A stretch of 64,000 nt of DNA from Candidatus Peribacteria bacterium (lineage in GTDB: Bacteria; Patescibacteriota; Gracilibacteria; UBA1369; 2-02-FULL-48-14), in contig CALRGE010000004.1 of assembly GCA_943357175.1 (NCBI GenBank), positions 36,420 through 100,419 on the forward strand. Direction: 5' to 3'. Below, piece by piece: positions 1,301 to 31,127 of the stretch. How positions within the stretch are numbered: position 1 is the stretch's first letter; every line of letters begins with the position of its first letter. The position numbers were made by a program, and so were the translations under genes. The notes beneath the pieces were generated by a model. It was not told where the DNA came from. It saw only the letters and a program-made list of their open reading frames with translations, and ran no database searches.

Positions 1301-1693
1301 ATGAAAAAGACTATTTCGCTAAGTTTGTTAGGTTTAGTTACACTTACAGGTTGTGGAGGGCCAACAACAGTTGCTTACCACAGTAGTGAATTCACATATG
1401 ACTCAGGAGTTTTTAAAAGTTTCTCAAATGACATTACAAGCGGAATTGCTGCGAAAGGTGATGAATCTTGCTGGATTGATCTTACAGGTGACTTAACAAG
1501 TCCATTGGACAGTGAAGAATTGCAAAATGCGACAGAAGGAAATATGACCCTAATGAGTGATTCAATGGGAGTTCCTCAATATATTTCATTCAGCATCGGC
1601 AATGAAATTGTTTACGCAAGAGTCAGTGTTGTAGACACTGATAACTGCACAGGCAAATTGGTGGCTTTAGCTGATATGAACGCAACTAAATAA
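1301..1693 (+). CDS. small lipoprotein, function unknown
   Basis: N-terminus MKKTISLSLLGLVTLTGCGG is a signal peptide plus lipobox (L-T-G-C). ATG start. lspA is present in the window. Confidence 0.6.
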   Translation: MKKTISLSLLGLVTLTGCGGPTTVAYHSSEFTYDSGVFKSFSNDITSGIAAKGDESCWIDLTGDLTSPLDSEELQNATEGNMTLMSDSMGVPQYISFSIGNEIVYARVSVVDTDNCTGKLVALADMNATK

Positions 1694-3044
1694 GTTCACC
1701 ATCAAGATGCCAATCGCCGGAATTTGTGACTCGCACATTTGCGAGTTGACCTAACAATTTTCGGCCTGATTGAAAGTGTACTTCTTTGTTTTCACGAGAG
1801 CGACCGATACAATGTTGACCGATTTGCTGTTCGACTAAAACTTCAACATTTTTGTTGATGAAAGCTTTGTGTTTTCTATTGGAAATTTCCTTAACAAGAG
1901 AATTAAGCTCATGCCATCGACGAGCTTTTTCTTGAGGAGAAACGCTATCTTCTAGTTTCTTATCTGAGTAAGTGCCCTTTCGTGGAGAATAGCGATTATT
2001 AAAACAAAAATCCCATTCCATTTCACGGTACATATTCAAAGTATTTGTGAATTCCTCTTCTGTTTCGCCACAAAATCCTACAATAATATCAGTTGAAATT
2101 GAAATGTCGGGAATGGCTTTTTTTAGCTTGTTCATTATGTCTTTATATTCGGCCGTTTTGTAATTTCTGTTCATCCGACGAAGCACTCGATCATCACCGG
2201 CCTGTACCGGCATGTGAACATATGGGCATATTGTGCGGAGCTCAGACATCGCCAGAATGACTTCATCAAAAAAATCTCGTGGATGTGGTGATGTAAAACG
2301 AAGACGACGAAGGCCGAGTTCATAAAGCTTGTCGATTTCTCGGAGTAAAGCAGCAAAAGGGCTCAGGCCGAATTCGACGAATTTGCCGGATTTCTTATCG
2401 TTAAAAGAAAGGCCATAAGAGTTCACCGTTTGGCCAACTAGTGTGATTTCTAAGGCGCCTTCAAGCACATGTTTTTTGCATTCTTCAAGTATCTCATTGA
2501 AATCTCTGCTGGCTTCACGGCCACGAGTGAATGGAACAATGCAGTAAGTACAAAATTTGTCGCAACCGTTTGAGATTGGAACAAATACAGCAAAATTTGA
2601 GGTTTTTTTGGGGTTTATTTTGAAGTAATTTTCGAGTGTTCCATCTTCAATGTCGTCTGTGAAAGTTAGGAGTGGATCAACGGTTTTTAGTAAATCTGGT
2701 AATTTTGCAACATCTTCAATTCGAAAAACGAAATCAACTTCGGGCATTCTTTTTAATATATCGTCGATTTTGTGGTCCTTTTGCGTTGAGGAGCTACGGA
2801 CCATGCAACCTGTTACAGTAACTTTCAGATTTTTGTTGGCTGTTTTTAAGGCTGCGATTTGTTTTCTGAGTCCAAAAAGTTTGTCTTCTGCTTTTTGTTT
2901 AATTTGGCAGGTATTGTAAATAATAATATCAGCAGATTTTTCATCATCACCGAGCTCATAACCGATTCGTTCAAGAACACTGGCAACGCGCTCCGAATCA
3001 GAGTAATTCATGGCACAACCGAATGTTTTGATATGATACTTCAT
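1686..3044 (-). CDS. miaB: tRNA methylthiotransferase (MiaB-type radical SAM MTTase)
   Basis: N-terminal MTTase motif IKTFGCAMNYSDSE, radical-SAM CDKFCTYCIVPFTRGRE, TRAM-like C-terminus, 452 aa. Confidence 0.85.
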   Translation of the reverse strand: MKYHIKTFGCAMNYSDSERVASVLERIGYELGDDEKSADIIIYNTCQIKQKAEDKLFGLRKQIAALKTANKNLKVTVTGCMVRSSSTQKDHKIDDILKRMPEVDFVFRIEDVAKLPDLLKTVDPLLTFTDDIEDGTLENYFKINPKKTSNFAVFVPISNGCDKFCTYCIVPFTRGREASRDFNEILEECKKHVLEGALEITLVGQTVNSYGLSFNDKKSGKFVEFGLSPFAALLREIDKLYELGLRRLRFTSPHPRDFFDEVILAMSELRTICPYVHMPVQAGDDRVLRRMNRNYKTAEYKDIMNKLKKAIPDISISTDIIVGFCGETEEEFTNTLNMYREMEWDFCFNNRYSPRKGTYSDKKLEDSVSPQEKARRWHELNSLVKEISNRKHKAFINKNVEVLVEQQIGQHCIGRSRENKEVHFQSGRKLLGQLANVRVTNSGDWHLDGELI

Positions 3045-3046
3045 AA

Positions 3047-3514
3047 TTAGCTAAGTTCCGGGAGGGAAAATATAGCTGAAGCAAGCGAATAAGGGAATCT
3101 TTTTCTTAAGGCCGAGTATATCTCTGATTTTGCCTTTATTTCTATATTTGAGGCTTCGATGTGTTTATTTAGATCAGAAATATTTTTTTTTGCTTCATGA
3201 AAATTGATATTTTTTATGGATTGTGAGCTAGCGAAAAAACCCTGCAGAGTTTCAAGAATTTCTATTTCTGAACTGTCAGTACGGCTTCTTAAATCAAGAA
3301 GTTTTCTCCAAAGATCTGTCGGTTCTGATGCTGCCTTATATGATTCAAGCAAATATGGAATTATGTCACGTCGCTTAGCAAAATCGCTTTTTAAGATTGA
3401 TTGAATTTGAGTAACTGCAATAAGATCTCTCATCAAAGAATTTCGCAACCAAAACAACCAAATAAAAATAATGATTATTATTGCCGCTATTATTAGAAAT
3501 AAATTTTCAATCAT
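3047..3514 (-). CDS. LemA-family membrane protein
   Basis: N-terminal TM helix, then KRRDIIPYLLESYK and C-terminal RKRFPYSLASAIF. These resemble the LemA motifs RRxDLIPNLV and RRFPxNIxA. Confidence 0.55.
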   Translation of the reverse strand: MIENLFLIIAAIIIIIFIWLFWLRNSLMRDLIAVTQIQSILKSDFAKRRDIIPYLLESYKAASEPTDLWRKLLDLRSRTDSSEIEILETLQGFFASSQSIKNINFHEAKKNISDLNKHIEASNIEIKAKSEIYSALRKRFPYSLASAIFSLPELS

Positions 3515-4041
3515 TTTTTAATTTTTTTTAAAAATTTATCACGGATATCAAGAATTTTTCTTGCATTGTCAAAAGGCTGTTCAGCGTCATGTAGACTGAA
3601 AATCACAACATCGGCAGCAGTTCTAAGCTCAATTTTACCGAAGTGGAAAATGGTTTCTATTAAGCCGACTTCTGTTCCACGAACATCCTGCAATTGATCT
3701 AGGTTGGCAGCAGAAACTTGTCTATTAAGGAATGCAATTTGGTCATGATTTATAACTCTTTCATTTGTAACAATAATCACGTCCAGTTCATGATTTAGCC
3801 ATGAAATAAATGTAACTAATATGACTGTAAGCAGATAGAACGAAAAAAGAAAAAGTACTATCAAATGATTATTTTCTATGCGTCCGGGGAAATATTTTAT
3901 TGCGGCAATAATATATGCAATTATTGGAACAATTGCGAAAAAGAAAAGGCTTAATAGGACTTTTAAATCACTTATCCAATGTTTTTTTAGAATCAATAAT
4001 GCTTCTTCATGTGGTCTTTGACCTGGAAACTGTAATTTCAT
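3511..4041 (-). CDS. membrane protein with bacterial PH (bPH_2/YdbT-like) domain
   Basis: Two TM helices followed by VIIVTNERVINHDQ...GKIELRTAAD, typical of bPH_2. 4-nt overlaps with both neighbours. Confidence 0.45.
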   Translation of the reverse strand: MKLQFPGQRPHEEALLILKKHWISDLKVLLSLFFFAIVPIIAYIIAAIKYFPGRIENNHLIVLFLFSFYLLTVILVTFISWLNHELDVIIVTNERVINHDQIAFLNRQVSAANLDQLQDVRGTEVGLIETIFHFGKIELRTAADVVIFSLHDAEQPFDNARKILDIRDKFLKKIKK

Positions 4042-5051
4042 TTTAATTCTTTTAATAATATTTCTGCTGTCTTCTTCCAGGAATATTTCTTTGATACCAT
4101 CTTTTCCACCATTGAAACCTGCTTACGGAAATTTGAATCTTGTAGCTTTTTTATAATAGCAAGAGTTGAGACTTTTGGCGAAATAAAGAGTGCGGAATTT
4201 TGAGAGACTTCACGGTTGACTGGAATGTCTTTAACAATTGCAGGACAGCCAAGCGACATGGCCTGTAAAAGTGGAATATTAAAGCCTTCTGAATCTGAAA
4301 AGTGTAAAAATGCGAATGCCGAGGCAAGAAGTTCATAGACTTTTTTATCTGGAATATTTCCTAGTAAAGTTGCGTTGGGCGGAAGCTTGAGGGCGGGATA
4401 ATATTTGGAAACATGGTGAGCTCTTCCAATTAGCTGAAGCTTCATTTGTGGAAACTGCTTTTGTATTTTTGTGAAGGAGGCAAGTAGTTCCGGCACGTTT
4501 TTTCTAATGTCATAACCACCCAGATAAACAAGAAGATTTGGATCATGTTTTGTAGATATTTTTGATGTAAGTGGCGGAATTGCATTTGGAAGAATTTTTG
4601 CATTTGGGATTCCAAGTTCTGCGTGAACTGCAGCGGAAACGGTGAATATTTTATCAACGTAAAGAAGTGAGTGGTGTGCGGCACGATGATAAAGTTTTTT
4701 GATTTTATTACCGGCGTAGCGACTGTCTTTCCATGAAATCAAATCGTGCACGGTTACTGCTCGTTTATGACTGGATTTTTTTGGGAGTGGACTTGGATAA
4801 GGATAATATTCGAGATTGAGATTGAGTTTTGCAAAGGCTAGTGGAGCTTGGACTCGTTCCCAATACCATTTTGCGAGTGGACCAAATTTTGGCTTGATTA
4901 CAATTACTTTCACGCCCGGAATTTTGATTGGCCTTGGTGAGACTGCTGTGACTTCTGCTTTTTTTGCTAGTTCTTTAATTAGGCCGAGTGAATGCTGACC
5001 TATGCCTGTGAAAGGTTGTGATAAAAACCATCCTTGAAATCCGATTTTCAT
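4038..5051 (-). CDS. GT4-family (group 1) glycosyltransferase
   Basis: N-terminal TGIGQHSLGL and C-terminal SDSEGFNIPLLQAMSLGCPAIV (E-x7-E region) of GT-B/GT4 enzymes. Translationally coupled to murG. Confidence 0.75.
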   Translation of the reverse strand: MKIGFQGWFLSQPFTGIGQHSLGLIKELAKKAEVTAVSPRPIKIPGVKVIVIKPKFGPLAKWYWERVQAPLAFAKLNLNLEYYPYPSPLPKKSSHKRAVTVHDLISWKDSRYAGNKIKKLYHRAAHHSLLYVDKIFTVSAAVHAELGIPNAKILPNAIPPLTSKISTKHDPNLLVYLGGYDIRKNVPELLASFTKIQKQFPQMKLQLIGRAHHVSKYYPALKLPPNATLLGNIPDKKVYELLASAFAFLHFSDSEGFNIPLLQAMSLGCPAIVKDIPVNREVSQNSALFISPKVSTLAIIKKLQDSNFRKQVSMVEKMVSKKYSWKKTAEILLKELK

Positions 5052-6043
5052 AAGTAGGTTTTAATTATTTTTACGATTTTCTCTAGGGCATCATTTTTGA
5101 GATGCTTGGCCGGCCGTGCTGGAAGTTTCAAGAGTTGTGCTAGAGCTGGTTTCGATTCGTCGGCGATTTTGAAAAGTGGTGACTTGATTGCCGACTGCGC
5201 GTTTGCGAATTGATCACCACGACTTCCGGCTCCAAGTGGATAAAGAAGAGTTGGGATTTGCAGTGTTTGGAGCTCTGCGAGTGCGTTGGCTCCGGAACGG
5301 GAGAGCGCGAGCGAAGCGAGCTCGAGGAAGTTAGCCATTTCATGAATATATGGCACGGAATAGTAATGAGGCGATCGAGTGATTTTACCCTTTCCCTGCC
5401 CTGTTACATGAACCACGTCGAAATGTTTTATTAATTCTTTTTTCTCACTTTCAATAATCTTGTTAAGTTGTTGCGAACCAGTACTTCCACCCATTACAAG
5501 TAGAACTTTTCGTTTCCCGTCGAAGCCGCAAGTTTTCGAAGCGCGTTTTGAATCACCTTTAAGCAACTCTTTTCGGATCGGATTCCCAACAAAGTGTCCC
5601 CGGGGACAGTCGATGTCAAAACCCAATAAAACCTTATCAGCAAACGGTGCGATTAGGCGAGTAGCCAAACCCAAAATTGCATCAGATTCGTGAGTGAGAA
5701 CCGGAATCCCGCGAAGCTTAGCTGCAACAACAACGGGGAAAGAAACGAATCCACCTTTGCTAAAAACCAACTGAGGTTTTATTCGTCCAAGTTTCCACCA
5801 TGCCTGAATAATGCCAACTGGAATCCGAAATAAATCGAAAAAATTCCGTAAATCAAAGTAGCGGCGAAACTTTCCAACGCTAATATATTCAAAAGGAATT
5901 CCAGCGCGTTTTACTAAATCGGCCTCAAGTCCGTCACGAGATCCAATATAAAAAACTTTAGTATCTCGAGATATAGCGTCGGCTATAGCGAGGTTGGGCA
6001 ACACGTGTCCCGCTGTACCCCCTCCTGTCAAAAGTATAGGCAT
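5048..6043 (-). CDS. murG: undecaprenyl-PP-MurNAc-pentapeptide GlcNAc transferase
   Basis: N-terminus MPILLTGGGTAGHVLPNLAIA (G-loop of MurG), GT28 C-terminal GGSTGS...SRSGANALAEL. Confidence 0.85.
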   Translation of the reverse strand: MPILLTGGGTAGHVLPNLAIADAISRDTKVFYIGSRDGLEADLVKRAGIPFEYISVGKFRRYFDLRNFFDLFRIPVGIIQAWWKLGRIKPQLVFSKGGFVSFPVVVAAKLRGIPVLTHESDAILGLATRLIAPFADKVLLGFDIDCPRGHFVGNPIRKELLKGDSKRASKTCGFDGKRKVLLVMGGSTGSQQLNKIIESEKKELIKHFDVVHVTGQGKGKITRSPHYYSVPYIHEMANFLELASLALSRSGANALAELQTLQIPTLLYPLGAGSRGDQFANAQSAIKSPLFKIADESKPALAQLLKLPARPAKHLKNDALEKIVKIIKTYL

Positions 6044-7196
6044 TTTCAGTAGTGTATTTTGAAATATTCAGTAGCACTCCCATCGCAACCAATGATGTCA
6101 CCATTGATGAGCCTCCGTAGCTCATAAATGGCAGGGTAATTCCCGTTATTGGGAAGAGCGATGTGTTTACCATTATATTAACGAAAGCCTGCACACAAAT
6201 CCATGTAGTTAATCCTGCCGCCATTAACATAGCAAATTTATTTGGCGCGTGATTTGCAATTTTATAACCTCTGTAAGCGATGACCGCATATAATAAAACT
6301 AAAATAACCGTCCTAAAAAACCCTAGTTCTTCAGCCGATGCAGCAAAAATAAAATCGTCAGTTGCTTGTGGAAGCCAGTACGATTTTTGAATGCCTTGAG
6401 TCAAACCTTTCCCCCAAGGCCCGCCGCTTCCAATCGCTATATTCGCCTGTTTTGACTGCCAACAAAAGCCCTCGCCACATTCCGCAGTTGGATTAAAAAA
6501 TGCAGTAAATCTTTGAGAAATTCTTTCACTAACACTACCGGCCGTAATTGCAAACATCATTGTCAAAATTGCACCAAATACCAAATGCTTCCAATTCGCA
6601 CCTGCCAAAAAATAGACAGCGACCGCAATAAAAGCCACAATCATGGCTGAGCCAATATCAGGCTGAAGTAAAATTGGTAAAACAATCGCTCCTGAAATCA
6701 AACAAAATTTTCCAAATCCTTCTTTAAAATCTTCAATTTTTTCCTGCGAAAGTTTATCACCAAAAATCATACTTAAATAAATCACCAGCCCAAACTTTGC
6801 AAGCTCAGACGGCTGAAGTGAATCAATCAGCGGAATTGAAGAAAAGTTCAACCAACTTGTTGCGAAAGTATTGTTCGCCTGACCCAATGCAAAAAGCACT
6901 AAAAGTAAAATTAAAGCCCCGCCATAAATAAGAACCGACAGATTTTTCCAATGCTTAAAATTCATCCTAAAAGCGCCATACATCATAACTAAGCCAATCA
7001 AAACACGAATCACATGCTTCTTCAAAACAAGATAACAATCTACAGCATCATCACCACAATCAGGATACTGCAAATCAGGCGCAGACAAGGAAATCGACTT
7101 CGGCACCCCAATACTCGTAATCATCACAACCCCACCAAGCACAATCACAAGGACCGCAATCAGCAACCAATGATCAAATTTCGGACGGCGTGACAT
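5958..7196 (-). CDS. ftsW: SEDS-family peptidoglycan polymerase (FtsW/RodA)
   Basis: About 10 TM segments. SEDS motifs LQPSELAKF, TDDFIFAASAEELG, PFMSYGGSSM. Sits directly upstream of murG. The last 28 codons overlap the murG start. Confidence 0.85.
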   Translation of the reverse strand: MSRRPKFDHWLLIAVLVIVLGGVVMITSIGVPKSISLSAPDLQYPDCGDDAVDCYLVLKKHVIRVLIGLVMMYGAFRMNFKHWKNLSVLIYGGALILLLVLFALGQANNTFATSWLNFSSIPLIDSLQPSELAKFGLVIYLSMIFGDKLSQEKIEDFKEGFGKFCLISGAIVLPILLQPDIGSAMIVAFIAVAVYFLAGANWKHLVFGAILTMMFAITAGSVSERISQRFTAFFNPTAECGEGFCWQSKQANIAIGSGGPWGKGLTQGIQKSYWLPQATDDFIFAASAEELGFFRTVILVLLYAVIAYRGYKIANHAPNKFAMLMAAGLTTWICVQAFVNIMVNTSLFPITGITLPFMSYGGSSMVTSLVAMGVLLNISKYTTENAYTFDRRGYSGTRVAQPRYSRRYISRY

Positions 7197-7254
7197 AGCG
7201 AAAGGTTAGGCTGGGAGATTATAGCCTAAAAGTTTGATGGGTGGAATTTAAGTT

Positions 7255-10200
7255 TTATGGAAGAATCCTATTTATAAAATCATTCAAATCACTTAATTCT
7301 TTATACAAAGGCATTCCCTTACCTAATCCAAGTTTAGTTTTATCTAAATTAGCCAACATTATTTTTTTGAAGTCTTTTACCATTTCTGAGGTAAGATCCT
7401 TTGGCTTGACTGTCATTCCCAAGAATGAAATTAAATTATCTGCAAGATCTGTATTGCCTGGATCAGTAGGTGCCAATAACATCGTTTTTAATCGTGTTTC
7501 GTTAGTAAGCATATGGTATTTACCCATTACTTTTCCCATTTCTAATGAGAATAAGAAATTAGAAATATCTTCTTTTGATTTAGGTATTCCATTCCCAAAT
7601 CGGTCATAATCAATAATTACTTTTCTCAAATCCGGAGTTGATTTAAATACTTTTTCGAAGTTATTTGCATTAGTAAATCTTTTTTCAATATCTTCTAATT
7701 TTGTTTTAAAATGAGTAAAATTTGTGGTTGCAGTAGGAGTCATTTTTAAAGGATCAGCTAAGTCTAAAGACTTCCATACAGAGTCAATCAACTGTTTAAA
7801 TTCATCAACGGTTAATGGTTTTCTACCCAATAGCTGTTCAACTTGCTCCTGCATTTTAGGCTTCATAGCAGCATTTTTCTCAATCGAATTAAGACCCAAA
7901 TCTGAAAGTAGATAAAGAAAGTTCTCGTCAAACTTATTTAAATCAAAAGTTTCTAGGAATTTATTTTTGTCTTTATCTTTCCTTAAAGCCTTTGATGTGG
8001 CTCCAAATTTTGCGTAATCAATATTTATTTCTGGTTCATTTGTAGCAGGATATAAAACTTCGAATGCGGTTTCACCTCCAAAAGCAGCCCTGTAACTCTT
8101 TATTACAGTACCTGCTTCTCCTAGCATACGGCGAATTGTAGGGGCATTTTCATTTGTACTTGCAGCAATCTTTTTTGTTAAATCTGTAATAAGCCCATCA
8201 AGTTCAGTATGACTGCTAATTGTTCCATCAAAACCAAGCATCTCTACAATTAAAACTTTTACTTTTTCCGGTTCATTCATTGCGATCTTAAATGCAGGCT
8301 CAGTTAGAAGTTGTGAGAATGCACCTTTAAAATCTCTCTTGTCAAAAGCTTCTACAAACTTTTCGATATCTTTTGTCTCAGTTTTAAATAGTTGTTTACC
8401 AAATTCTTTATATTTGATAGTTGTTTTTTTAACATCATTGCTGAAGATTTTATCTAAATTTGCTGAAGACAAAGCTTTTTTAATCCTGTCCAATGAATCT
8501 GAAATCTGACTATTTGTTGTCGCGCCTGCAAATGTTGCCTGTAAAGAAGCAATTATCCCCTTAACTTCAGCGTTAGTAATCTTTGCCCCAACTGCTATAT
8601 TTAGTACAGCTGCAATTTTTTCCTTTATAGCTTTTTTGTTCGAGAAAGTATCATCGTCATTATCAAGTAGATCTTTAAGTCTTCTTTCATTCATAATCAT
8701 AGAGAATTCTTTGTTGAATTCAGATTGATTAAAGGCCTTAGCAAAAGCTTTTTTCTCCTTATCACCTTTTAATTTACTAACTTGAGCTCCAAATTTTGTT
8801 GTATCAATTTCAGGTTCTTTAGTTTCGTTACTATAAACTTTGGTTAAATTATCAGCATCTAATGCGGGTATAATTGTTGCCAAAAAAGCGTCGATATTAG
8901 TTGCAGGAGCTAAACCTGTAAATTGTGCTCTAAGCTCTGCCACTATCCTTGTAACATCTGCTGCTTTAACAATTCCTTCAACACCCAAGAAAGATGCAAT
9001 TTTTGCTTTAGCAGATTTTTGATTTGTACGTGCTGCATCATCTTCCTCCAATGATTCTTTCAATCTAGCATTGTCCATGATCGCAAAGAATTGACTTTGG
9101 AATTCAGCTGAGTCAAAAGATCTCAGAAACGCTTCTTTTGCGGAATCATCTTTAAGCTTTAATGCTTGTACTCCAAATTTTGTATAATCAATTTCTACTT
9201 CCTTAGCCTCCTTACCATAGATTTTTGTGATGTTAGTCGGTGTTAATGCCAAAACAATTTTATCTAATGCAGCACCCATATCAGTAATTTTACTATCCGT
9301 ACGGGTCATACCAGCAAATTTAATCTTTAAAGCATCAATTTGTGTTGATACTTCTCCTGGAGTAACTCTTCCTTCTATATGTAAAGCAGCTTCAATTTTT
9401 TTCTTGATTGCTGTCCGATTTGAATGCTCTGTGTCATCATCTTTCAAAGAATCTGCAAGTCTAGTAGCATCCATAATCATCCAGAATTCCCGATTTAAAG
9501 ATGAAACTTGTAATGAATCAAGGAACCCATTTCTTTCATTTGGTTTTAATGCGTGTACTTGATCGGCAAATTTAGAATAGTCTATATTTACTACTTTCTT
9601 TTCTGCTCCATATAGTTTAGTTAATCTTCGATCATCTACTGCGATTGTTGGTTCTTCTAAAACTGTAGTTATTCTTCCCATTGCAGCCGCAAATTGCATT
9701 TGTTTGGCTCCATTTGGTGGAGTTGTCCCAAACAACTTTGTATACATGTCATCTAAAATCGTTTCCAAATCATCGAAATCCACTTTTCCATGAGTACCGA
9801 ATAATGCAGTGATTTGTTTTTTTGCATCTGACTTTCCTTCATCAGATTTTAGAGCATCGTCAAAACGTGCTTCATCAACAAGAAGTCTGATTTTTTTCTG
9901 GAATTTAATTATATCAATAGACTTAAAGAAACTTGCTCTATCTTTTGGCTTCAAGTGAGAAATTTGTTCCGCAAGATTTTCGTAATCAATTTCCATTGTT
10001 GGAACATCTTTAGGACCGAACAATCTTCTTATACCTCTAGCAAAATTTCCTGACACACTATCTTCCGTACCGAATGCACCTTCTATCGCCGAGATTCCAG
10101 CATCAAAATCTGCAGTATCAATTTCATCTTTACTCCAAATTTCTGAAAGCCCTTTAAATGCCTTGAAGAATCCACCTTTCTTTGGATCTGTATGCACAGG

Positions 10201-12054
10201 AAGTGTTGAGTGTTTCTTATGTTTGTCGTCGTTGTCTTCATGATGTTCACCACCGGCTGAATCCGTTTCAACTATTTTTTCTGCAGGTTTTTCATGTTCT
10301 TTATCGTGTGCTTTTTCTTCAGGTTCATGACCGCCACCTGCGTCAGGTTTTGTATGCTTTTTTTTCTCTATTTTAGCCTTATCTAAATCAGTCAAAAGTG
10401 AATCCTCAATTCTTGGTGCGTTTTTAATTTTACCTGTGCCTTTAGGTTCAGCCTCAACAGGAGTCTCCTTTATAGTAGTTAATTGTTCTTCGAATGCACG
10501 AATTGGCGCGTCCCAAACTATATCTTTCACTGTTTTTCCGCCGGCAAGTAAAATACCAAGTGCACCACCATCAACGTGGAATTTTTTGTCAGTAGTTTTT
10601 CTTTCTGCCGCACCGGTTTCGCTAACTGATGCCTCGCCTTCCCAGTGGACACCAATGATGTCGTGTGGGATTGCAAGTGCGGCACCTTCAAGTGCGCCAA
10701 GAACAAATCCTGTTGGAGCAACAACAGTCGCCAAGACTGCCTGCTGAGTTCTGTACCAAGCTTTTTTTGTTAAATTCCACATGCCACCGGCAATTGAAGA
10801 CATTCCACCGCCAACATAATCTATTCCTCTTGAAAGAATGTTTGGTTTTGATGGTCCTGAAGCTGCTGCGGCTGGAGCGGCGTGACCGGCATCTGCTTTT
10901 GGCTCATCGTGATGTTCAGGTGCATGAGATTTTTTCACAATTGCACTATCACTATGATCTGTTGGCCAATTTAATGCCCAATCTAAGCCACGACTGAATC
11001 GATTTTTTGCGCCGTATCCGATTCGTCCAACTGGAAATACTACTGTTTTTCCAACTTGTTTTCCCAATTCGACTCCGCTGTTTGCGATCCCAACAACTTC
11101 TTCTCTAATCAGTCTTCCGGTGCCTTTTGCCACGGCAACCGTACCGTCAACTACCATTCCACCAATTGATACTCCAGTGTGAACAGCGAGAGTGCTGGCA
11201 AGTAGAAATTTTTCTGTTGTGATGATTGGCTTTGCATCGGCCTTTTTCTTTGCAGCTTCAGCTTTTTTAGCATTTATTTTTGCTTTCTCATCTTCACCCT
11301 TCAAACCCTTGTCAATAAGGTCATCAAAATTTGATTCCTGTTGTTCGTAAGCTCTATCAAAAGCTTGGTTAAATCTTTTTTCATTAAAATCAGATGAAAT
11401 CCCATTTCCCATTCTGTCACGATAAACTTTTTTTGCTTTAGCTTTAACCTTCTCTTTTATTTTTTCTCTTTTCTTCTGCTTATCTTTTATATCCTTTATT
11501 TCGGGTAGGTCTAAAACAGATTTTATAAACTCTGATTGCTCCTTATCAATCGCAATGTCACTTTCTTTCTTTTCATTATCATCTCTAATTTTTTTTGCTT
11601 TTATAGCTGATTCAATCGCCTCATCAATAAATTTTACATTAACGCCTGTCGAACTTAATCTACGGCTTATAATTTCTCTCATTTTTTCTTTTCTTCTGTA
11701 TTCATTAGGCTCATTATTAATTTCACCGTCATTAACCAACTTATTTGCTTCCTCAATTGCTGCACGCCTTGCATCATATTCTTTCTTTATTCTCTCATTC
11801 TCTTTTACTCTTCCATCGTTTGCATCTTTAACTTTTGAATAAACCTTCTTAACTCCTGATTTAACAGCATCACGAGCGTTGTCCAACAATGATGGTTTTT
11901 TTGACTCTGGCTTTTCACCTTTGTCACCAGCTAAAGTAGGCTCTTCGTCTTCGAAGCCATTATCGTTATCAGGTCCGGAATCAGAGTCGGTTCCAGCGTG
12001 GGCTGGATCAGGCTTTACGTCATCGATATCTGATGCTGGTGTAGGGTTTGCCAT
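7255..12054 (-). CDS. 1,599-aa orphan modular protein: acidic N-terminus, K/E-rich coiled-coil-like region, Gly-rich hydrophobic block, His-rich linker, seven ~130-aa repeats
   Basis: Uninterrupted 4.8-kb ORF with internal protein-level periodicity. Only short low-complexity antisense ORFs lie opposite. Same strand as ftsW and 58 nt upstream of it. I recognise no family. Confidence 0.8.
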   Translation of the reverse strand: MANPTPASDIDDVKPDPAHAGTDSDSGPDNDNGFEDEEPTLAGDKGEKPESKKPSLLDNARDAVKSGVKKVYSKVKDANDGRVKENERIKKEYDARRAAIEEANKLVNDGEINNEPNEYRRKEKMREIISRRLSSTGVNVKFIDEAIESAIKAKKIRDDNEKKESDIAIDKEQSEFIKSVLDLPEIKDIKDKQKKREKIKEKVKAKAKKVYRDRMGNGISSDFNEKRFNQAFDRAYEQQESNFDDLIDKGLKGEDEKAKINAKKAEAAKKKADAKPIITTEKFLLASTLAVHTGVSIGGMVVDGTVAVAKGTGRLIREEVVGIANSGVELGKQVGKTVVFPVGRIGYGAKNRFSRGLDWALNWPTDHSDSAIVKKSHAPEHHDEPKADAGHAAPAAAASGPSKPNILSRGIDYVGGGMSSIAGGMWNLTKKAWYRTQQAVLATVVAPTGFVLGALEGAALAIPHDIIGVHWEGEASVSETGAAERKTTDKKFHVDGGALGILLAGGKTVKDIVWDAPIRAFEEQLTTIKETPVEAEPKGTGKIKNAPRIEDSLLTDLDKAKIEKKKHTKPDAGGGHEPEEKAHDKEHEKPAEKIVETDSAGGEHHEDNDDKHKKHSTLPVHTDPKKGGFFKAFKGLSEIWSKDEIDTADFDAGISAIEGAFGTEDSVSGNFARGIRRLFGPKDVPTMEIDYENLAEQISHLKPKDRASFFKSIDIIKFQKKIRLLVDEARFDDALKSDEGKSDAKKQITALFGTHGKVDFDDLETILDDMYTKLFGTTPPNGAKQMQFAAAMGRITTVLEEPTIAVDDRRLTKLYGAEKKVVNIDYSKFADQVHALKPNERNGFLDSLQVSSLNREFWMIMDATRLADSLKDDDTEHSNRTAIKKKIEAALHIEGRVTPGEVSTQIDALKIKFAGMTRTDSKITDMGAALDKIVLALTPTNITKIYGKEAKEVEIDYTKFGVQALKLKDDSAKEAFLRSFDSAEFQSQFFAIMDNARLKESLEEDDAARTNQKSAKAKIASFLGVEGIVKAADVTRIVAELRAQFTGLAPATNIDAFLATIIPALDADNLTKVYSNETKEPEIDTTKFGAQVSKLKGDKEKKAFAKAFNQSEFNKEFSMIMNERRLKDLLDNDDDTFSNKKAIKEKIAAVLNIAVGAKITNAEVKGIIASLQATFAGATTNSQISDSLDRIKKALSSANLDKIFSNDVKKTTIKYKEFGKQLFKTETKDIEKFVEAFDKRDFKGAFSQLLTEPAFKIAMNEPEKVKVLIVEMLGFDGTISSHTELDGLITDLTKKIAASTNENAPTIRRMLGEAGTVIKSYRAAFGGETAFEVLYPATNEPEINIDYAKFGATSKALRKDKDKNKFLETFDLNKFDENFLYLLSDLGLNSIEKNAAMKPKMQEQVEQLLGRKPLTVDEFKQLIDSVWKSLDLADPLKMTPTATTNFTHFKTKLEDIEKRFTNANNFEKVFKSTPDLRKVIIDYDRFGNGIPKSKEDISNFLFSLEMGKVMGKYHMLTNETRLKTMLLAPTDPGNTDLADNLISFLGMTVKPKDLTSEMVKDFKKIMLANLDKTKLGLGKGMPLYKELSDLNDFINRILP
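7258..9996 (-). repeat. seven tandem ~390-nt (128-136 aa) coding repeats inside the giant ORF
   Basis: Anchor IDYxKFG (variants IDTTKFG, IKYKEFG, IDYDRFG) at aa 689, 824, 955, 1083, 1213, 1345, 1481. The + strand string CCAAATTTTG..TA.TCAAT recurs at 8003, 8789, 9173. Confidence 0.75.
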
Positions 12055-12127
12055 AGTGATTATATTTCAATATAAAAGTATACCGTATTATAGCGTTTTG
12101 GTCAACCCTGAAAGTTTGCGAAATTTT

Positions 12128-12637
12128 ATGGGTCTTATATGGTGGGAATGTAAACGAAATATTATGAAATTTGCGAGGGCTCCGGAACTGGATAGAATTT
12201 GGAAATTTTTCGGTCCACTTTTTTTAATTTTGATTTCTGCTGATCAGATTTCAAAATGGTGGGCAGTTAAAAATTTGGACTCAATAAATGATCAAAATAT
12301 TGGAATGGCTTTGTCTTACAATGACGGAATTGTGTTTGGATTAAACTTACCAATTTGGATGATATGGGTTTTAACAGTTGCAGTTTTTGGGCTTGGAATT
12401 TGGCTTGTTATTGAAAATAAATTGTGGCGAGATCATTGGCATTTAACAGGTTTGGCATTGCTTTTGGCAGGTGCAATGGGCAATACAATTGATAGATTCC
12501 GATTTGGATACGTTGTTGATTTTTTGAAAGTTTATTGGTGGCCTACATTTAATTTAGCTGATGTGTTTATTGTTTCAGCCGTGGCTTTATTTGCTTGGGA
12601 ATTTTTGATTCGGGAGAATGTGCTTGAAGACCTTTAA
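12128..12637 (+). CDS. lspA: lipoprotein signal peptidase II
   Basis: LspA motifs DQISKWW, NDGIVFGL, GAMGNTIDRFRFGYVVDF, FNLADVFI. The tracked ORF start at 11879 overlaps the giant gene and is rejected. In-frame ATGs lie at 12128 and 12164, and the exact start is uncertain. Confidence 0.85.
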   Translation: MGLIWWECKRNIMKFARAPELDRIWKFFGPLFLILISADQISKWWAVKNLDSINDQNIGMALSYNDGIVFGLNLPIWMIWVLTVAVFGLGIWLVIENKLWRDHWHLTGLALLLAGAMGNTIDRFRFGYVVDFLKVYWWPTFNLADVFIVSAVALFAWEFLIRENVLEDL

Positions 12638-13424
12638 GAAAGTTTTCTGTAGATATAATTGATCGCCCTATTCGCAGTTCAAGTTTTTTTCTTGCTCCGC
12701 CTGCAATATCTCCGCCGAATTTCGCATCTTCTTGGAGTTTTGGTACTCCTTTCGAATTTTCACTTCGGTGGATTTCAGTTGTGGAACGCTCTCCTAGCAT
12801 ATTGAAAATTAGTTCAAAATCATTCATGTGATCTCTGAGATTTTCTCGCTTGAGGCCTTTCATTTTTTTGTATGAACGAGGAGTTACACCAAAAGTTGCT
12901 TTGGAAATCTCTGCAGTTAGGATTTCGTAATCATCAAATGCGGCGCCTCGATTTTTCCACTCATCTGTTAATTCATCTCTGATGGCAATGCCACGAATTC
13001 GTTTTTCTATCCAATCATCAGTGTAGCCTTTTGCTTTATAGATGGCTCTTGTTCGATTCGCGGCAAGTTCAGGATTTTCGATTTCCTGCACTCGCTCGTA
13101 TCCAACTTTTGCAAGCCACCGTTTGAAAGGTTCAGCTTTTGGAGATGGAATTGATTGAATAATGCGGAAGATGCCTTCGGTGTTGGCACAGTCGGTTTCA
13201 TATTTTTTGCCATCCAAAGCTTCGAGTTTGAGTTGTTTACAAATTGTAAACAACTGGGATCCCTCTTCATTTTTAACACGCGCCTTCATGACACTCCAAT
13301 AAACACTCGGTTTTGTGCTATCTGTTAATACTTCGATAACATCAACAACCGAAAACCACCACTCATCTTGATGCATGGTTTTTCTAATTTTCTTCCCGCC
13401 GAACAAAGCAATTTTTGTTGTCAT
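12567..13424 (-). CDS. Bro-N domain protein with DinD-like C-terminal region (phage antirepressor-like)
   Basis: Bro-N pattern FGGKKIRKTMHQDEWWFSVVDVIEVL...EGIFRIIQSIPSPKAEPFKRWL. C-terminal KGLKRENLRDHMNDFELIFNMLGERSTTEI resembles the DinD family. Start taken at Met19 (13424). Confidence 0.7.
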   Translation of the reverse strand: MTTKIALFGGKKIRKTMHQDEWWFSVVDVIEVLTDSTKPSVYWSVMKARVKNEEGSQLFTICKQLKLEALDGKKYETDCANTEGIFRIIQSIPSPKAEPFKRWLAKVGYERVQEIENPELAANRTRAIYKAKGYTDDWIEKRIRGIAIRDELTDEWKNRGAAFDDYEILTAEISKATFGVTPRSYKKMKGLKRENLRDHMNDFELIFNMLGERSTTEIHRSENSKGVPKLQEDAKFGGDIAGGARKKLELRIGRSIISTENFLKGLQAHSPESKIPKQIKPRLKQ

Positions 13425-13507
13425 AGTAATTTTTATAAAATACGTTGGGATTTTGATTCCCAAATTGGAATACGACAAATAAGGATTCTATTTAACAGAT
13501 CAATTTT

Positions 13508-28190: not shown

Positions 28191-29266
28191 AAATTCTTTA
28201 TTTAAGCAATAATAGATTTCCAACTGAAAAGGCACATGGCCTGCAAATTGCGAAAATGTGTGAAGCGTTTATTGACCAAGGGACTGAGGTTTTACTAATT
28301 CTGCCAAATCGGTTACAGCCAAGTGAAATTAGTACGGCTAAAGAATTTTATGGATTAAAAAAAGATATTAAAGTTAAGCAAATCTGGAATATAGATTTAC
28401 TGTTAAATAATGTTGTTCCAAGAACTTTTGCATATTTTTTACAAAGTTTTACTTTTGCAATTTCATTTATAATAAGACGTTGGAAATATAAAAAATATGT
28501 TATTTACTCGAGAACTTTTTTGCCATTAATCGGGTATAGAGGTAAGTGGTTTTTTGAAGCGCATACTTTTCCAAAAACTTTTATTGGTCAATTGATGCAG
28601 AGAATTTTTCTAAGAAATGCAAGCGGTCTGGTTTGCATTAGCCAAGCTTTAGCAAAAAAATTTGGTCAAATTTATAGTGGTGAGATTTTGATTGCACACG
28701 ATGGTGTTGATATTGATTTATTTAGTAATTTTAAGAAGACAAGTGGTCATAAAAATGTTCTTTATACCGGTTCACCTTATAAAGAAAAAGGTGTTTTGAC
28801 ACTGGCTAAAGCTTGTGAAGATCTTAAGGATGTAAATTGTATTTTTTTGGGTGGCAATAAAAATGAACCTGAGTTTAAGCAGCTACAAAAAATTGCGAAA
28901 AACTCTATGGTGATACCTTATGTTAAACATTCTGATGTTCCTAAATATATTGCCAATGCTGATCTTTTGGTGATTCCAAATAGCGCAAAAGATAAGGCAT
29001 TTTCCGAAGATACTTCTCCATTAAAATTATTTGAATATATGGCCAGTGGCAAGAAAATCCTTGCAAGTGATGTGCCTGCTTTAAAAGCAATTTTAACTGA
29101 AAAAATGGCGTGGTTTTTTAAAGCTGATGATGTGAAGGATTTACGTAAAAAAATAATTGAAGCCTTGAATTCAAAGGAAGAAAAGGGAAAGTTCGCTGCA
29201 CAAGTAGCTAAAAAGTACTCATGGACTGAGCGGGCAATAGAAATTCTTGCCTTTTTAGATATCTAA
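28187..29266 (+). CDS. GT4-family glycosyltransferase
   Basis: MKILYLSNNRFPTEKAHGLQIAKM and TSPLKLFEYMASGKKILASDVPA. ATGA overlap with the methyltransferase stop. Confidence 0.7.
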   Translation: MKILYLSNNRFPTEKAHGLQIAKMCEAFIDQGTEVLLILPNRLQPSEISTAKEFYGLKKDIKVKQIWNIDLLLNNVVPRTFAYFLQSFTFAISFIIRRWKYKKYVIYSRTFLPLIGYRGKWFFEAHTFPKTFIGQLMQRIFLRNASGLVCISQALAKKFGQIYSGEILIAHDGVDIDLFSNFKKTSGHKNVLYTGSPYKEKGVLTLAKACEDLKDVNCIFLGGNKNEPEFKQLQKIAKNSMVIPYVKHSDVPKYIANADLLVIPNSAKDKAFSEDTSPLKLFEYMASGKKILASDVPALKAILTEKMAWFFKADDVKDLRKKIIEALNSKEEKGKFAAQVAKKYSWTERAIEILAFLDI

Positions 29267-31127
29267 TAATCATCTTTGGCTCACCGTTATGATCTTTTAT
29301 CAAGAAGTCATCTTCTTTTAATTTATCGTCTGAGTATTTAAGGATTTCAATTGCATCTTTGGAATAATCAAATTTTGATGAGCTTATATATTCAAAGTCG
29401 TCTTTATAAGCACTGCCAAGATAATGAGCGTCTACTTCACGAAAAATGCCTAAGTACCATCTAAATTGATGTTTATATGACAATAAAAACGAGTCCTCAA
29501 TAACAAGTAGCTGATCTTTATCTTGCAAAAATTTTTGTAAAACTGTGAAGCCGTCGTCTTGCAAGAAGCCCCATGATGCTAGTGATATATGTTGTTTAAA
29601 TGCTTGATACGAATATATATTACTACGCCCATATTCACCTTCAAGGATTGTATCGTCCATCGGAATTACAAAAATGTGGGTATTTAATGCGTAAATAAAT
29701 GCCCAGACTGTATAAATACAAGACCATAAAATGACTGACACTTTAAGCATTATATTTTTCCAATTGATCTGCCCTAATACAAACAATGATAAGAGTAAAA
29801 ATGGTATTGTGAGATATTCTGCGTAATATGCTCTGTATCCGTTAAAAGAGAAGAAAAGAATCGATATAAGTATGATTGAAATAAAAAAATAGATTGGTAT
29901 AATTCTATCTTTTAAATTTTTTCTGAAAATAAAAACGAGCGGTATTGATGCGAATAAGTTGATAGCAATTAATAGTGACCATTGATCTGCCAATAATTGC
30001 AAGAAACCTGCTAAAGTTTTGAAGAATGAGGGTGTAATTTCGCTATAAAGACCGACATTTCCCATAATTGAATTTGCATTGAATCCAAGTAAATTAAGAA
30101 GCTTAGCTGTTGGCACATCTGTGTAACCTGTTAGTTGATATGCACATATATTGAATACGATGACCGGCAAGAAAAAGAATAATGTAACAAGTGATGTTTG
30201 GAATAAATTTTTGTATCCTTTTTTATTAAATAGCCAGAAAAATATAAATGGTGGAATCAAGAAAATTGCGCTTAATTTTACTAAGATTGTTGATGCTGCC
30301 AAAAGTCCAATGAGAAAGATATCGAGCTTGCTCGGACTGTTTTTTTTCTGCAAAAATCTTATAAAAAAATATGAAAATAAGAGTACAAAAAATGTAAAAA
30401 CACTACCATCTTGAGGTATCATTAATCGTGAGCCGAAAATTGCGTATGTATTTATTGAGAGAAGTAATAAGCCGAAAGCTGTTATAGTTTTTGATAACTT
30501 TAAACTTTTCGCAAAAAGCAAGAATAGTGCTAATTCAAGTAATCCAAAAACAATCATTGGGCTACGAAGAATATATTCAGGCAAATATGCATATTGAAAT
30601 GGTGTCACTAAGCTATAAATAATAAAAGATACGAAATATCCGAGTGGAGAATGATCTGTTCCGGAAAGAAAAAATGCATCTCTACCGACCAAAATTCCAC
30701 TGAATAGATGATAAGAATAAAGTGAGAGTTCTTGTTCATCACCATTGATATTTTGGTTTGCGTTTCCGTAAATGCGAAGAAAAATTCCTAGTGCAAAAAT
30801 TGATAGTATTAAATAAAGCCATTTTTTTTCTGGAGCTTCGAATTTTCCGTGAAATGATTCTTTTTTCCTTGAGATGTAGTAGAGACAAGAACAAAGTAGA
30901 ATGTATATCGGGAAAAGTGTATCGATATGAACCTGATATGGATTTGGAGAGTAAAAATATTCGATTATATTATTTGACAGACCGACCGGATATCCGAGTA
31001 GAAAACTAATACCTATGCTGAGTATGATTGCCTCCCAAAAATTGAGTTTTTCATTTTTACCCCAAATTGATTTTAGGAAAAAATAGCCCGGAAAAAAGAT
31101 TGCAAAAGGCGCAAATAGAATTGTCAT
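29208..31127 (-). CDS. GT-C fold polyprenyl-phosphate-sugar-dependent glycosyltransferase (ArnT/PMT, GT39/GT83-like) with C-terminal soluble domain
   Basis: More than 12 TM segments. The first extracytoplasmic loop carries NGDEQE (the D/E motif of GT-C enzymes). About 170-aa hydrophilic C-terminus. Operonic with a Dpm1/ArnC-like GT2. Confidence 0.6.
   Translation of the reverse strand: MTILFAPFAIFFPGYFFLKSIWGKNEKLNFWEAIILSIGISFLLGYPVGLSNNIIEYFYSPNPYQVHIDTLFPIYILLCSCLYYISRKKESFHGKFEAPEKKWLYLILSIFALGIFLRIYGNANQNINGDEQELSLYSYHLFSGILVGRDAFFLSGTDHSPLGYFVSFIIYSLVTPFQYAYLPEYILRSPMIVFGLLELALFLLFAKSLKLSKTITAFGLLLLSINTYAIFGSRLMIPQDGSVFTFFVLLFSYFFIRFLQKKNSPSKLDIFLIGLLAASTILVKLSAIFLIPPFIFFWLFNKKGYKNLFQTSLVTLFFFLPVIVFNICAYQLTGYTDVPTAKLLNLLGFNANSIMGNVGLYSEITPSFFKTLAGFLQLLADQWSLLIAINLFASIPLVFIFRKNLKDRIIPIYFFISIILISILFFSFNGYRAYYAEYLTIPFLLLSLFVLGQINWKNIMLKVSVILWSCIYTVWAFIYALNTHIFVIPMDDTILEGEYGRSNIYSYQAFKQHISLASWGFLQDDGFTVLQKFLQDKDQLLVIEDSFLLSYKHQFRWYLGIFREVDAHYLGSAYKDDFEYISSSKFDYSKDAIEILKYSDDKLKEDDFLIKDHNGEPKMIIRYLKRQEFLLPAQSMSTF

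Follow-up and report, generated by a model that had tools for sequence, protein, structure and literature searches.

A giant open reading frame (ORF) in the genome of a Candidatus Peribacteria bacterium, lying at positions 7255..12054 on the minus strand of a 64,000-nucleotide stretch of contig CALRGE010000004.1 (positions 36,420 to 100,419; hereafter the window), is shown here to be a real gene, maintained by selection, of a lineage-restricted protein family that had not been described before. The family has a characteristic architecture: a variable hydrophilic N-terminus, a Gly/Ala-rich block with three helical segments, a flexible acidic linker and an array of 2-9 repeat units. Cell growth and division in bacteria of the candidate phyla radiation (CPR) have received hardly any experimental study, and here a giant protein that is lineage-conserved, apparently non-enzymatic and probably membrane-tethered is encoded immediately before a SEDS polymerase and MurG, a position that makes it a specific candidate organiser of cell-wall synthesis. 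The first-pass annotation of this DNA had proposed that a large scaffold co-transcribed with these two enzymes could be a division or envelope component; our analysis leaves such a role as a reasonable hypothesis rather than a finding.

An undescribed, lineage-restricted protein family

The first-pass annotation, made without database searches, described the protein as an orphan that it could place in no family. No known family indeed matches: searches of the giant protein against Pfam, NCBIfam and PDB sequences returned noise only (Vma12 and CIF in Pfam at E < 0.1), PADLOC and PHROGs were empty, and no module matched a characterised adhesin, S-layer or cytoskeletal family, for which we looked. 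The protein is no orphan: its family comprises at least 19 sequence clusters. A word-indexed protein search with the giant protein returned one homologue, P0001, at 42% identity, and an exhaustive HMMER search with aa 265-1464 against 1.84 billion representatives of clusters at 50% identity recovered 18 relatives, three of which match over the whole architecture (E 1e-154 to 1e-209) and the others via their repeats. An iterated family hidden Markov model (HMM) finds 2-9 tandem units of ~127 aa per member, for a total of 88 units across 19 proteins, and the repeat profile of alignment A2 matches the window protein with 7 units (E 4e-167 at database scale). Word-indexed searches with the 70-row A2 profile and with aa 265-700 were null, yet A2 scores P0001 at E 3.5e-84 locally, so these nulls reflect a limit of the method and not absence. 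Public sources label the family members 'hypothetical protein', and we found no description of the family in the literature.

Every taxonomically labelled locus belongs to Peregrinibacteria-type CPR bacteria (Candidatus Peribacteria or 'Gracilibacteria' metagenome-assembled genomes). A scan of one genome per GTDB species with the N-termini of the largest subgroup yielded four loci, all in Candidatus Peribacteria metagenome-assembled genomes (phylum Peregrinibacteriota) and one of them a 1.3-Mb chromosome; two further members are labelled Candidatus Gracilibacteria by NCBI. Peptide-pattern searches found zero loci with a two-sequence block alignment against reference genomes, and zero with a four-sequence alignment or a Peribacteria-type alignment against Joint Genome Institute metagenomes; as far as such patterns tell, the close subfamily of the window protein is therefore absent from GTDB representative genomes.

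From an ATG start, the ORF specifies a protein of 1,599 aa with a pI of 6.5 and no cysteine. Upstream of the ATG, the stop-to-stop frame adds just 4 codons, and the N-terminus 'MA(N/D)P' is common to the giant protein and P0001. It had been called the longest ORF of the window, which holds among the ORFs listed between positions 1 and 22000, and we found no paralogue elsewhere in the window. The protein divides into the following modules:

11815..12054, minus strand: N-terminal region, aa 1-80; by composition acidic, Pro-rich and probably disordered, no signal peptide
11251..11814, minus strand: Lys/Glu-rich region, aa 81-268; highly charged by composition, the fastest-evolving module by identity
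10465..11250, minus strand: hydrophobic block, aa 269-530; Gly/Ala-rich, recognised by conservation, putative membrane-association module
10039..10464, minus strand: linker and pre-repeat, aa 531-672; acidic His/Lys-rich linker, then a conserved helical segment
9634..10038, minus strand: repeat 1, aa 673-807; orthologous to repeat 1 of close relatives, HMM domain E 2e-34
8467..9633, minus strand: repeats 2-4, aa 808-938, 939-1066 and 1067-1196; lineage-specific internal expansion
7258..8466, minus strand: repeats 5-7, aa 1197-1328, 1329-1464 and 1465-1599; more diverged, HMM E 1e-23, 2e-25 and 1e-17

Counts per region agree with the module compositions that had been reported: D17 K12 A10 P10 for aa 1-80, K18 E12 I10 for aa 85-280, A13 G13 V10 for aa 281-520 and K17 E16 H14 D10 for aa 565-620. 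Likewise, composition and hydrophobicity, assessed without a dedicated predictor, bear out the earlier statement that there is no signal peptide, as the region before the first hydrophobic stretch at aa 283 is hydrophilic; the C-terminus ('...NRILP') lacks an LPXTG motif. The description of aa 85-280 as coiled-coil-like holds for its composition only: a crude heptad scan, made without a dedicated coiled-coil predictor, found zero windows at threshold and a signal not above that of shuffled sequences, and we dropped a canonical coiled coil in this region. The helical pre-repeat segment (about aa 621-672) is alignable in every fused member of the family. A His-rich linker is common to the window's subfamily and a Peribacteria clade with a split gene; it is absent from the four fused members P0006, P0009, P0011 and P0015, and we no longer consider it a defining feature of the family.

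The gene bears the marks of selection and of a history shared with its neighbours. Compared with locus L001, the hydrophobic block is 89/92/62% identical at codon positions 1/2/3, a pattern that shows purifying selection. Four-fold-site identity is 41-48% for the giant gene and 42-59% for the longer neighbouring genes, and protein identity is 36% as against 77-91% for ftsW, murG, the family 4 glycosyltransferase (GT4) gene and miaB; similar synonymous divergence coupled with lower protein identity indicates that the giant gene has shared the history of its neighbours and evolves much faster. Change is concentrated outside the block, as module-wise identities to the closest relatives P0001/P0002/P0003 are 84/63/56% for the block and 19-57% for the other modules, including 24/19/22% for the Lys/Glu-rich region and 28/27/27% for repeats 2-7. 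The region aa 1-80 is 57% identical to P0001 and 24-36% identical to P0002 and P0003.

Rapid protein evolution, and a Bro-N/PDC-S13-type gene two genes away, might suggest a mobile, phage-derived or anti-phage defence gene that sits here by chance. We consider this explanation essentially refuted. Neither the giant protein nor the halves of the split form described below matched PHROGs or PADLOC, and tblastn of the giant protein against 50,697 phage records found zero matches; the family gene holds a fixed, single-copy position in 13 of 13 loci; and its synonymous divergence is that of its neighbours, for which reason we also dropped a separate history or horizontal replacement of the giant gene. 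The Bro-N gene itself has a tblastn match in no related locus and thus looks like a window-specific insertion.

In Peribacteria loci the family gene takes the form of two adjacent ORFs, 8-13 nt apart, that are split inside the hydrophobic block. The upstream ORF is 805-880 aa long in L002-L004 and 1,206 aa long in L013; in L002-L004 it comprises the N-terminal domains and block segments 1 and 2, followed by a His/Gly-rich tail and a TAA stop. The downstream ORF begins with 'M..HAPEHH..HFNNGG..KGVTYDA', which corresponds to block segment 3, and continues into the His-rich linker and the repeats. Because the same downstream start site occurs in eight separate protein clusters, the split is real, and because the two ORFs, with 8 and 13 nt from stop to ATG, lie in different frames, read-through between them is unlikely. 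Fused genes occur in the subfamily of the window protein and likewise in P0006, P0009, P0011 and P0015, which are more divergent, and this distribution across members suggests that fusion is ancestral and fission derived. The fused and split forms thus provide a natural experiment that marks domain boundaries and suggests that the two halves associate.

The N-termini differ between subfamilies, and unrelated N-terminal domains replace aa 1-80 in other family members. Peribacteria upstream ORFs (L003 7350-9992, L002 7570-9987) and P0009 carry 1-2 copies of an ~80-aa domain that appears beta-rich, and P0002 carries a MORN-like Gly-rich stretch; both were judged by eye in a comparison that included the N-termini of P0002, P0006 and P0009, and neither has a Pfam match.

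The repeat domain and the hydrophobic block

The first-pass annotation had reported seven tandem ~130-aa repeats, and these are real: the anchor motif '[IV]DYxKFG' recurs at aa 689, 824, 955, 1083, 1213, 1345 and 1481, pairwise identity among the repeats is 16-45% with pairwise BLAST E values down to 4e-24, and the family HMM recovers all seven (domain E 2e-34 to 1e-17). Repeat 1 finds its best matches in the first repeats of P0003, P0002 and P0001 at 41-44% identity, and repeats 2-4 are mutual best matches at 37-44% identity. By these sequence comparisons, repeat 1 is orthologous across the close subfamily and repeats 2-4 are a lineage-specific expansion. Beyond the array, the nine-repeat protein P0012 (L002 10001-14695) carries an extra C-terminal region of ~185 aa (aa ~1381-1564), with a weak DUF4256 match only (E 5e-4, below cut-off); the window protein has no such region.

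An AlphaFold2 model of repeat 2, computed from a 70-unit alignment, is a compact all-alpha domain of eight helical elements with a predicted local distance difference test (pLDDT) score of 90.7 and a predicted template modelling score of 0.79. Foldseek comparison of this model with the PDB gave a best E of 0.88 and template modelling (TM) scores of at most 0.37, with 0 chains at E <= 0.001 and globins as the top matches (TM <= 0.31), and comparison with BFVD gave a best E of 0.57 and no analogue. At the sequence level, the repeat profile matched PDB sequences with noise only, the best E values of the repeat and block profiles being 0.016 and 0.004 to irrelevant chains. As the model is confident and lacks a Pfam, PDB or BFVD match, the repeat domain deserves a family definition whatever its function. 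Its conserved positions are mainly hydrophobic, together with a 'DY..FG' motif, a pattern more suggestive of a domain with a structural or binding role than of an enzyme.

The hydrophobic block is the best-conserved module of the protein and is alignable across 11 members (8 fused and 3 two-ORF loci). It contains segment 1 (aa 283-311), segment 2 (aa 436-464) and segment 3 (about aa 491-520), and its core motif, G-x-x-(E)-G...D-x-x-G, includes the family-invariant residues G453, G457, D465, G468 and G497 (window numbering) and the near-invariant E456. Segment 1 scores a ΔG of +1.4 to +4.9 kcal/mol and segment 2 scores +4.4 to +6.3, where most FtsW transmembrane segments score -3.3 to +5.4 in the same scan; in hydrophobicity, the block thus overlaps with the weaker among the transmembrane helices of FtsW. 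All members carry a strongly positive charge (+5 to +14) in the loop that joins segments 1 and 2, nearly every member is positively charged ahead of segment 1, and past segment 2 the charge is neutral to negative, a pattern that is ambiguous as to topology. An AlphaFold2 model of the block from an 8-sequence alignment has a pLDDT of 35.6 and is unusable, beyond the suggestion of long helices.

One rival reading is a surface-exposed envelope protein, N-in and C-out with segment 2 as its anchor, whose repeats would project from the cell and serve as a spacer that is adhesin-like, associated with an S-layer or wall-spanning. Fast evolution, repeat numbers that vary from 2 to 9 and the lineage-specific expansion of repeats 2-4 would all accord with such a protein, as would the lack of cysteine, the change from positive charge before segment 2 to negative charge after it, and a gene that borders a large surface-glycan region and adjoins lspA. 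We nevertheless regard a surface location as unlikely. In the split form, the repeats are made as a separate polypeptide, encoded in a different frame from the upstream ORF and opening with a His-rich, hydrophilic stretch, in which we found no signal peptide, no twin-arginine translocation motif and no transmembrane-like segment (best ΔG in P0012 and P0005 at least 8.8); of all the evidence, this speaks most strongly for a cytoplasmic repeat array. In addition, Pfam searches of the window protein and of six further full-length members revealed no SLH, cell-wall-binding, sortase or adhesin domain, and positive charge both ahead of segment 1 and, strongly, in the loop between it and segment 2 misfits a simple bitopic protein. 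We favour the block as an inferred monotopic or re-entrant anchor at the cytoplasmic face of the membrane.

Large lineage-specific proteins that do appear to be extracellular have been described from Peribacteria: they contain about 7% cysteine, and most of them carry signal peptides (Anantharaman et al., 2016; PMC4736985). That study does not mention the giant repeat family. The two sets of proteins come from the same organismal group, are large and unannotated, and belong to genomes that invest heavily in the cell envelope, but the described proteins are cysteine-rich and mostly have signal peptides, whereas the giant protein has neither cysteine nor a signal peptide.

Gene order, expression signals and a candidate role

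The giant gene heads a string of co-directional genes on the minus strand and is divergent from lspA. The features of this neighbourhood are:

12164..12637, plus strand: lspA (signal peptidase II), 157 aa, divergent; Pfam Peptidase_A8 E 1e-28
12077..12105, minus strand: sigma70-type promoter, TTGACC-17 nt-TATACT; best match (10/12) in a scan of 2900-12700
7206..7229, minus strand: spacer hairpin; 7-bp stem UUAGGCU/AGCCUAA, 10-nt loop, ΔG -7.1 kcal/mol, z -2.7
5958..7196, minus strand: ftsW (SEDS peptidoglycan polymerase), 412 aa; Pfam FTSW_RODA_SPOVE E 3e-78
5048..6043, minus strand: murG; N- and C-terminal domains of Pfam Glyco_transf_28
4038..5051, minus strand: GT4 glycosyltransferase; Pfam scan
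3511..4041, minus strand: bPH-like membrane ORF; weak bPH_3 match, E 0.02
3047..3514, minus strand: LemA-like ORF; weak match, E 0.026, with an orthologue in L003 that passes the Pfam cut-off
1686..3044, minus strand: miaB; also in the co-directional string

Coordinates bear out most of the local arrangement that had been proposed. The giant gene stops 58 nt ahead of the ATG of same-strand ftsW at position 7196 (spacer 7197-7254), and lspA runs on the plus strand from its true start, an ATG at 12164, which leaves a divergent intergenic region of 109 nt. From ftsW and murG down to miaB, the genes share a strand and are tightly packed, either overlapping (by 4 nt, or by 86 nt in the case of ftsW and murG) or 2 nt apart; the bPH and LemA assignments are weak. 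The further claim, that the giant gene occupies the slot where mur and fts genes normally sit, carries no weight, as the annotated 1-45 kb hold no other gene of the division and cell wall (dcw) cluster and are largely a surface-glycan island.

The overlap of ftsW and murG (5958-6043, minus strand) spans 86 nt in different frames and encodes the C-terminal tail of FtsW, which is basic and rich in Tyr and Arg, together with the G-loop near the N-terminus of MurG. Because this G-loop ('GGGTAGH') begins at residue 7, the upstream ATG is the true start of murG. In most related loci (L002, L003, L006, L007, L009, L010, L013 and the P0011 contig) the two genes likewise overlap, by 43-128 nt, and in L011 and L014 they do not; this distribution points to a dual-coding stretch that is widely conserved, or to translational coupling.

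The position upstream of ftsW-murG, which the first-pass annotation had asked to be checked in homologues, is kept in all of the loci that provide downstream context (13 of 13: the window, L002-L007, the P0011 contig, L009, L010, L011/L012, L013 and L014), with one family gene, or the two of the split form, preceding ftsW-murG-GT4 on the shared strand. Each locus has one copy, between divergent lspA and ftsW-murG-GT4, and lspA is divergent wherever the contig reaches it (L001-L004, L006, L007, L009, L010, L013, L014 and the P0011 contig). Beyond the GT4 gene, relatives carry an ORF of ~180 aa, an ORF of ~160 aa and miaB wherever the contig reaches. In 10 of the 13 loci the family gene directly adjoins ftsW, with spacers of 35-75 nt where these were measured or computable. 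Window ftsW is 56-87% identical to its orthologues in the related loci. FtsW and MiaB both share 66-68% identity with their counterparts in Peribacteria and, respectively, 87% and 91% with those of L010, values that place the window in a related CPR organism.

The giant gene appears to have a promoter of its own. The -10 hexamer of the sigma70-type site ends 22 nt ahead of the ATG and implies a leader of about 15 nt, in which no Shine-Dalgarno sequence is evident, and a TTGnnn-17-TATAAT/TATACT element about 25-30 nt upstream of the ATG is also present in L001, L010, L006 and L007. A scan of the 58-nt spacer found no terminator-like site. The spacer hairpin overlaps a TATAAT hexamer and has no T-run after it; L010 conserves its sequence, L002 carries a stronger hairpin with a different 10-bp stem and a T-run behind it, and L007 has no hairpin. 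Since hairpins occur only in some loci, we dropped the idea that a terminator universally separates the giant gene from ftsW, and from these signals we predict that transcriptional read-through from the giant gene into ftsW is likely.

We tentatively favour the reading that the giant protein is a membrane-tethered, cytoplasmic, multivalent scaffold, co-expressed with the enzymes of peptidoglycan synthesis and organising them. The hydrophobic block would tether the protein to the cytoplasmic face of the membrane, perhaps via helices that are re-entrant or marginally transmembrane, and the repeats would remain in the cytoplasm as a long multivalent platform. Transcription would start at the gene's own conserved promoter, probably with read-through into ftsW-murG-GT4, and the protein would act as a lineage-specific organiser that concentrates or positions the lipid-II/peptidoglycan synthesis machinery. 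Repeat number and surface residues could then evolve freely while the anchor is constrained, and the analogy to membrane-anchored division or elongation adaptors such as EzrA would be functional, without kinship. A more specific version, which we think rather unlikely, is a Peregrinibacteria-specific peptidoglycan organiser in which each repeat docks a component of FtsW-MurG-GT4 or a divisome protein, substituting for the adaptors of other bacteria. If this version is correct, repeat count would set the valency or reach of the complex, and fission inside the block would show that the anchor and repeat halves reassemble non-covalently.

Several observations weigh against an organiser of peptidoglycan synthesis. 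The functional link to ftsW and murG is drawn from gene order alone, and conserved position discriminates poorly, as the whole ~20-kb region is collinear among relatives and includes the unrelated genes alaS, miaB, aroE, pgeF and DUF1385, in addition to an amidohydrolase and a GT4-deacetylase gene. In such strongly collinear genomes, conserved position by itself says little about function. The co-directional string also holds miaB, a tRNA-modification gene, and in 3 of the 13 loci inserted genes separate ftsW from the family gene: about 5.6 kb with four ORFs, three of them on the opposite strand, in L005 (1900-7520); a TPR protein (868 aa) and a 279-aa ORF in L006 (7163-10615); and a 194-aa ORF in L009, which also has a GGDEF gene between lspA and the family gene (12718-13302 and 9139-9972, respectively). 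The spacer hairpin and TATAAT hexamer could mean partial termination or an independent ftsW promoter. With regard to the protein, the block segments are only marginally hydrophobic and the block model has the low pLDDT given above, such that membrane insertion is only putative; the charge drop past segment 2 would fit an N-in, C-out topology; and very fast evolution with a variable repeat number is also typical of surface or conflict-related proteins.

Much of this evidence would be equally at home with a membrane-associated or cytoplasmic protein unrelated to peptidoglycan synthesis, such as a polar organiser, membrane shaper or tether, whose position is simply inherited gene order, and we hold this explanation to be doubtful but deserving of weight. 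Collinearity that extends well past the ftsW string, the presence of miaB within that string, the tolerated insertions before ftsW, and a giant gene with its own conserved promoter followed by a hairpin and TATAAT before ftsW all speak for it. On the other side, the order lspA-giant gene-ftsW is unbroken at FtsW identities of 56-68%, despite insertions both at the edge (Bro-N, Fic, GGDEF) and internally, and the family is found nowhere else in any locus, with a single copy in each.

Known systems offer comparisons for the scaffold reading. EzrA is a division regulator of Firmicutes with an N-terminal membrane anchor and cytoplasmic, helical, spectrin-like repeats, and the giant protein resembles it in the inferred principle of a membrane-tethered, all-helical repeat platform at the division or peptidoglycan machinery. 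The giant protein differs in that it has no Pfam match (E < 0.1, noise aside) or NCBIfam match; that its repeat is a compact unit of ~127 aa with about eight short helices, whereas a spectrin-type repeat has three; that the repeat model matches no solved structure (0 PDB chains at E <= 0.001); and that its hydrophobic module is internal and tripartite, whereas that of EzrA is an N-terminal transmembrane helix. Membership of the EzrA family was accordingly rejected, as the sequence test and the fold test both failed. The polar and division scaffolds of the DivIVA/Wag31, GpsB and Scy/FilP type are coiled-coil proteins; the giant protein is similarly charged, helical, non-enzymatic, a potential cell-wall organiser and fast-evolving outside short conserved modules, but has no Pfam match and no heptad signal in its Lys/Glu-rich region, and it carries globular helical domains rather than coiled coils as repeats, together with a conserved hydrophobic block. 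The family and its domain are thus undescribed, and the most probable working principle is one that is already known.

Genes at the edge of the locus and the surface-glycan island

Between lspA and aroE lies the Bro-N ORF (303 aa, 12567-13478, minus strand), which matches PADLOC PDC-S13 at E 1e-116 and phrog_15286 at E 5e-91. In L003 and L004, a Fic-type gene is found just upstream of lspA instead (HTH_DeoR and Fic by Pfam in L003).

Farther along the window, ~16900-47000 constitutes a large island of cell-surface glycan biosynthesis, the start of which is syntenic with Peribacteria loci. A 639-aa ORF within it (29208-31127, minus strand) has no Pfam match at E <= 1e-5. A scan of 28 ORFs from 16.9 to 45 kb assigned 23 to glycan biosynthesis: nine GT4/GT2 glycosyltransferases, one of which is fused to a polysaccharide deacetylase, three DegT-type aminotransferases, seven nucleoside diphosphate (NDP)-sugar epimerases or dehydratases, three methyltransferases and a UDP-glucose dehydrogenase. 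An LD-carboxypeptidase is interspersed with these genes.

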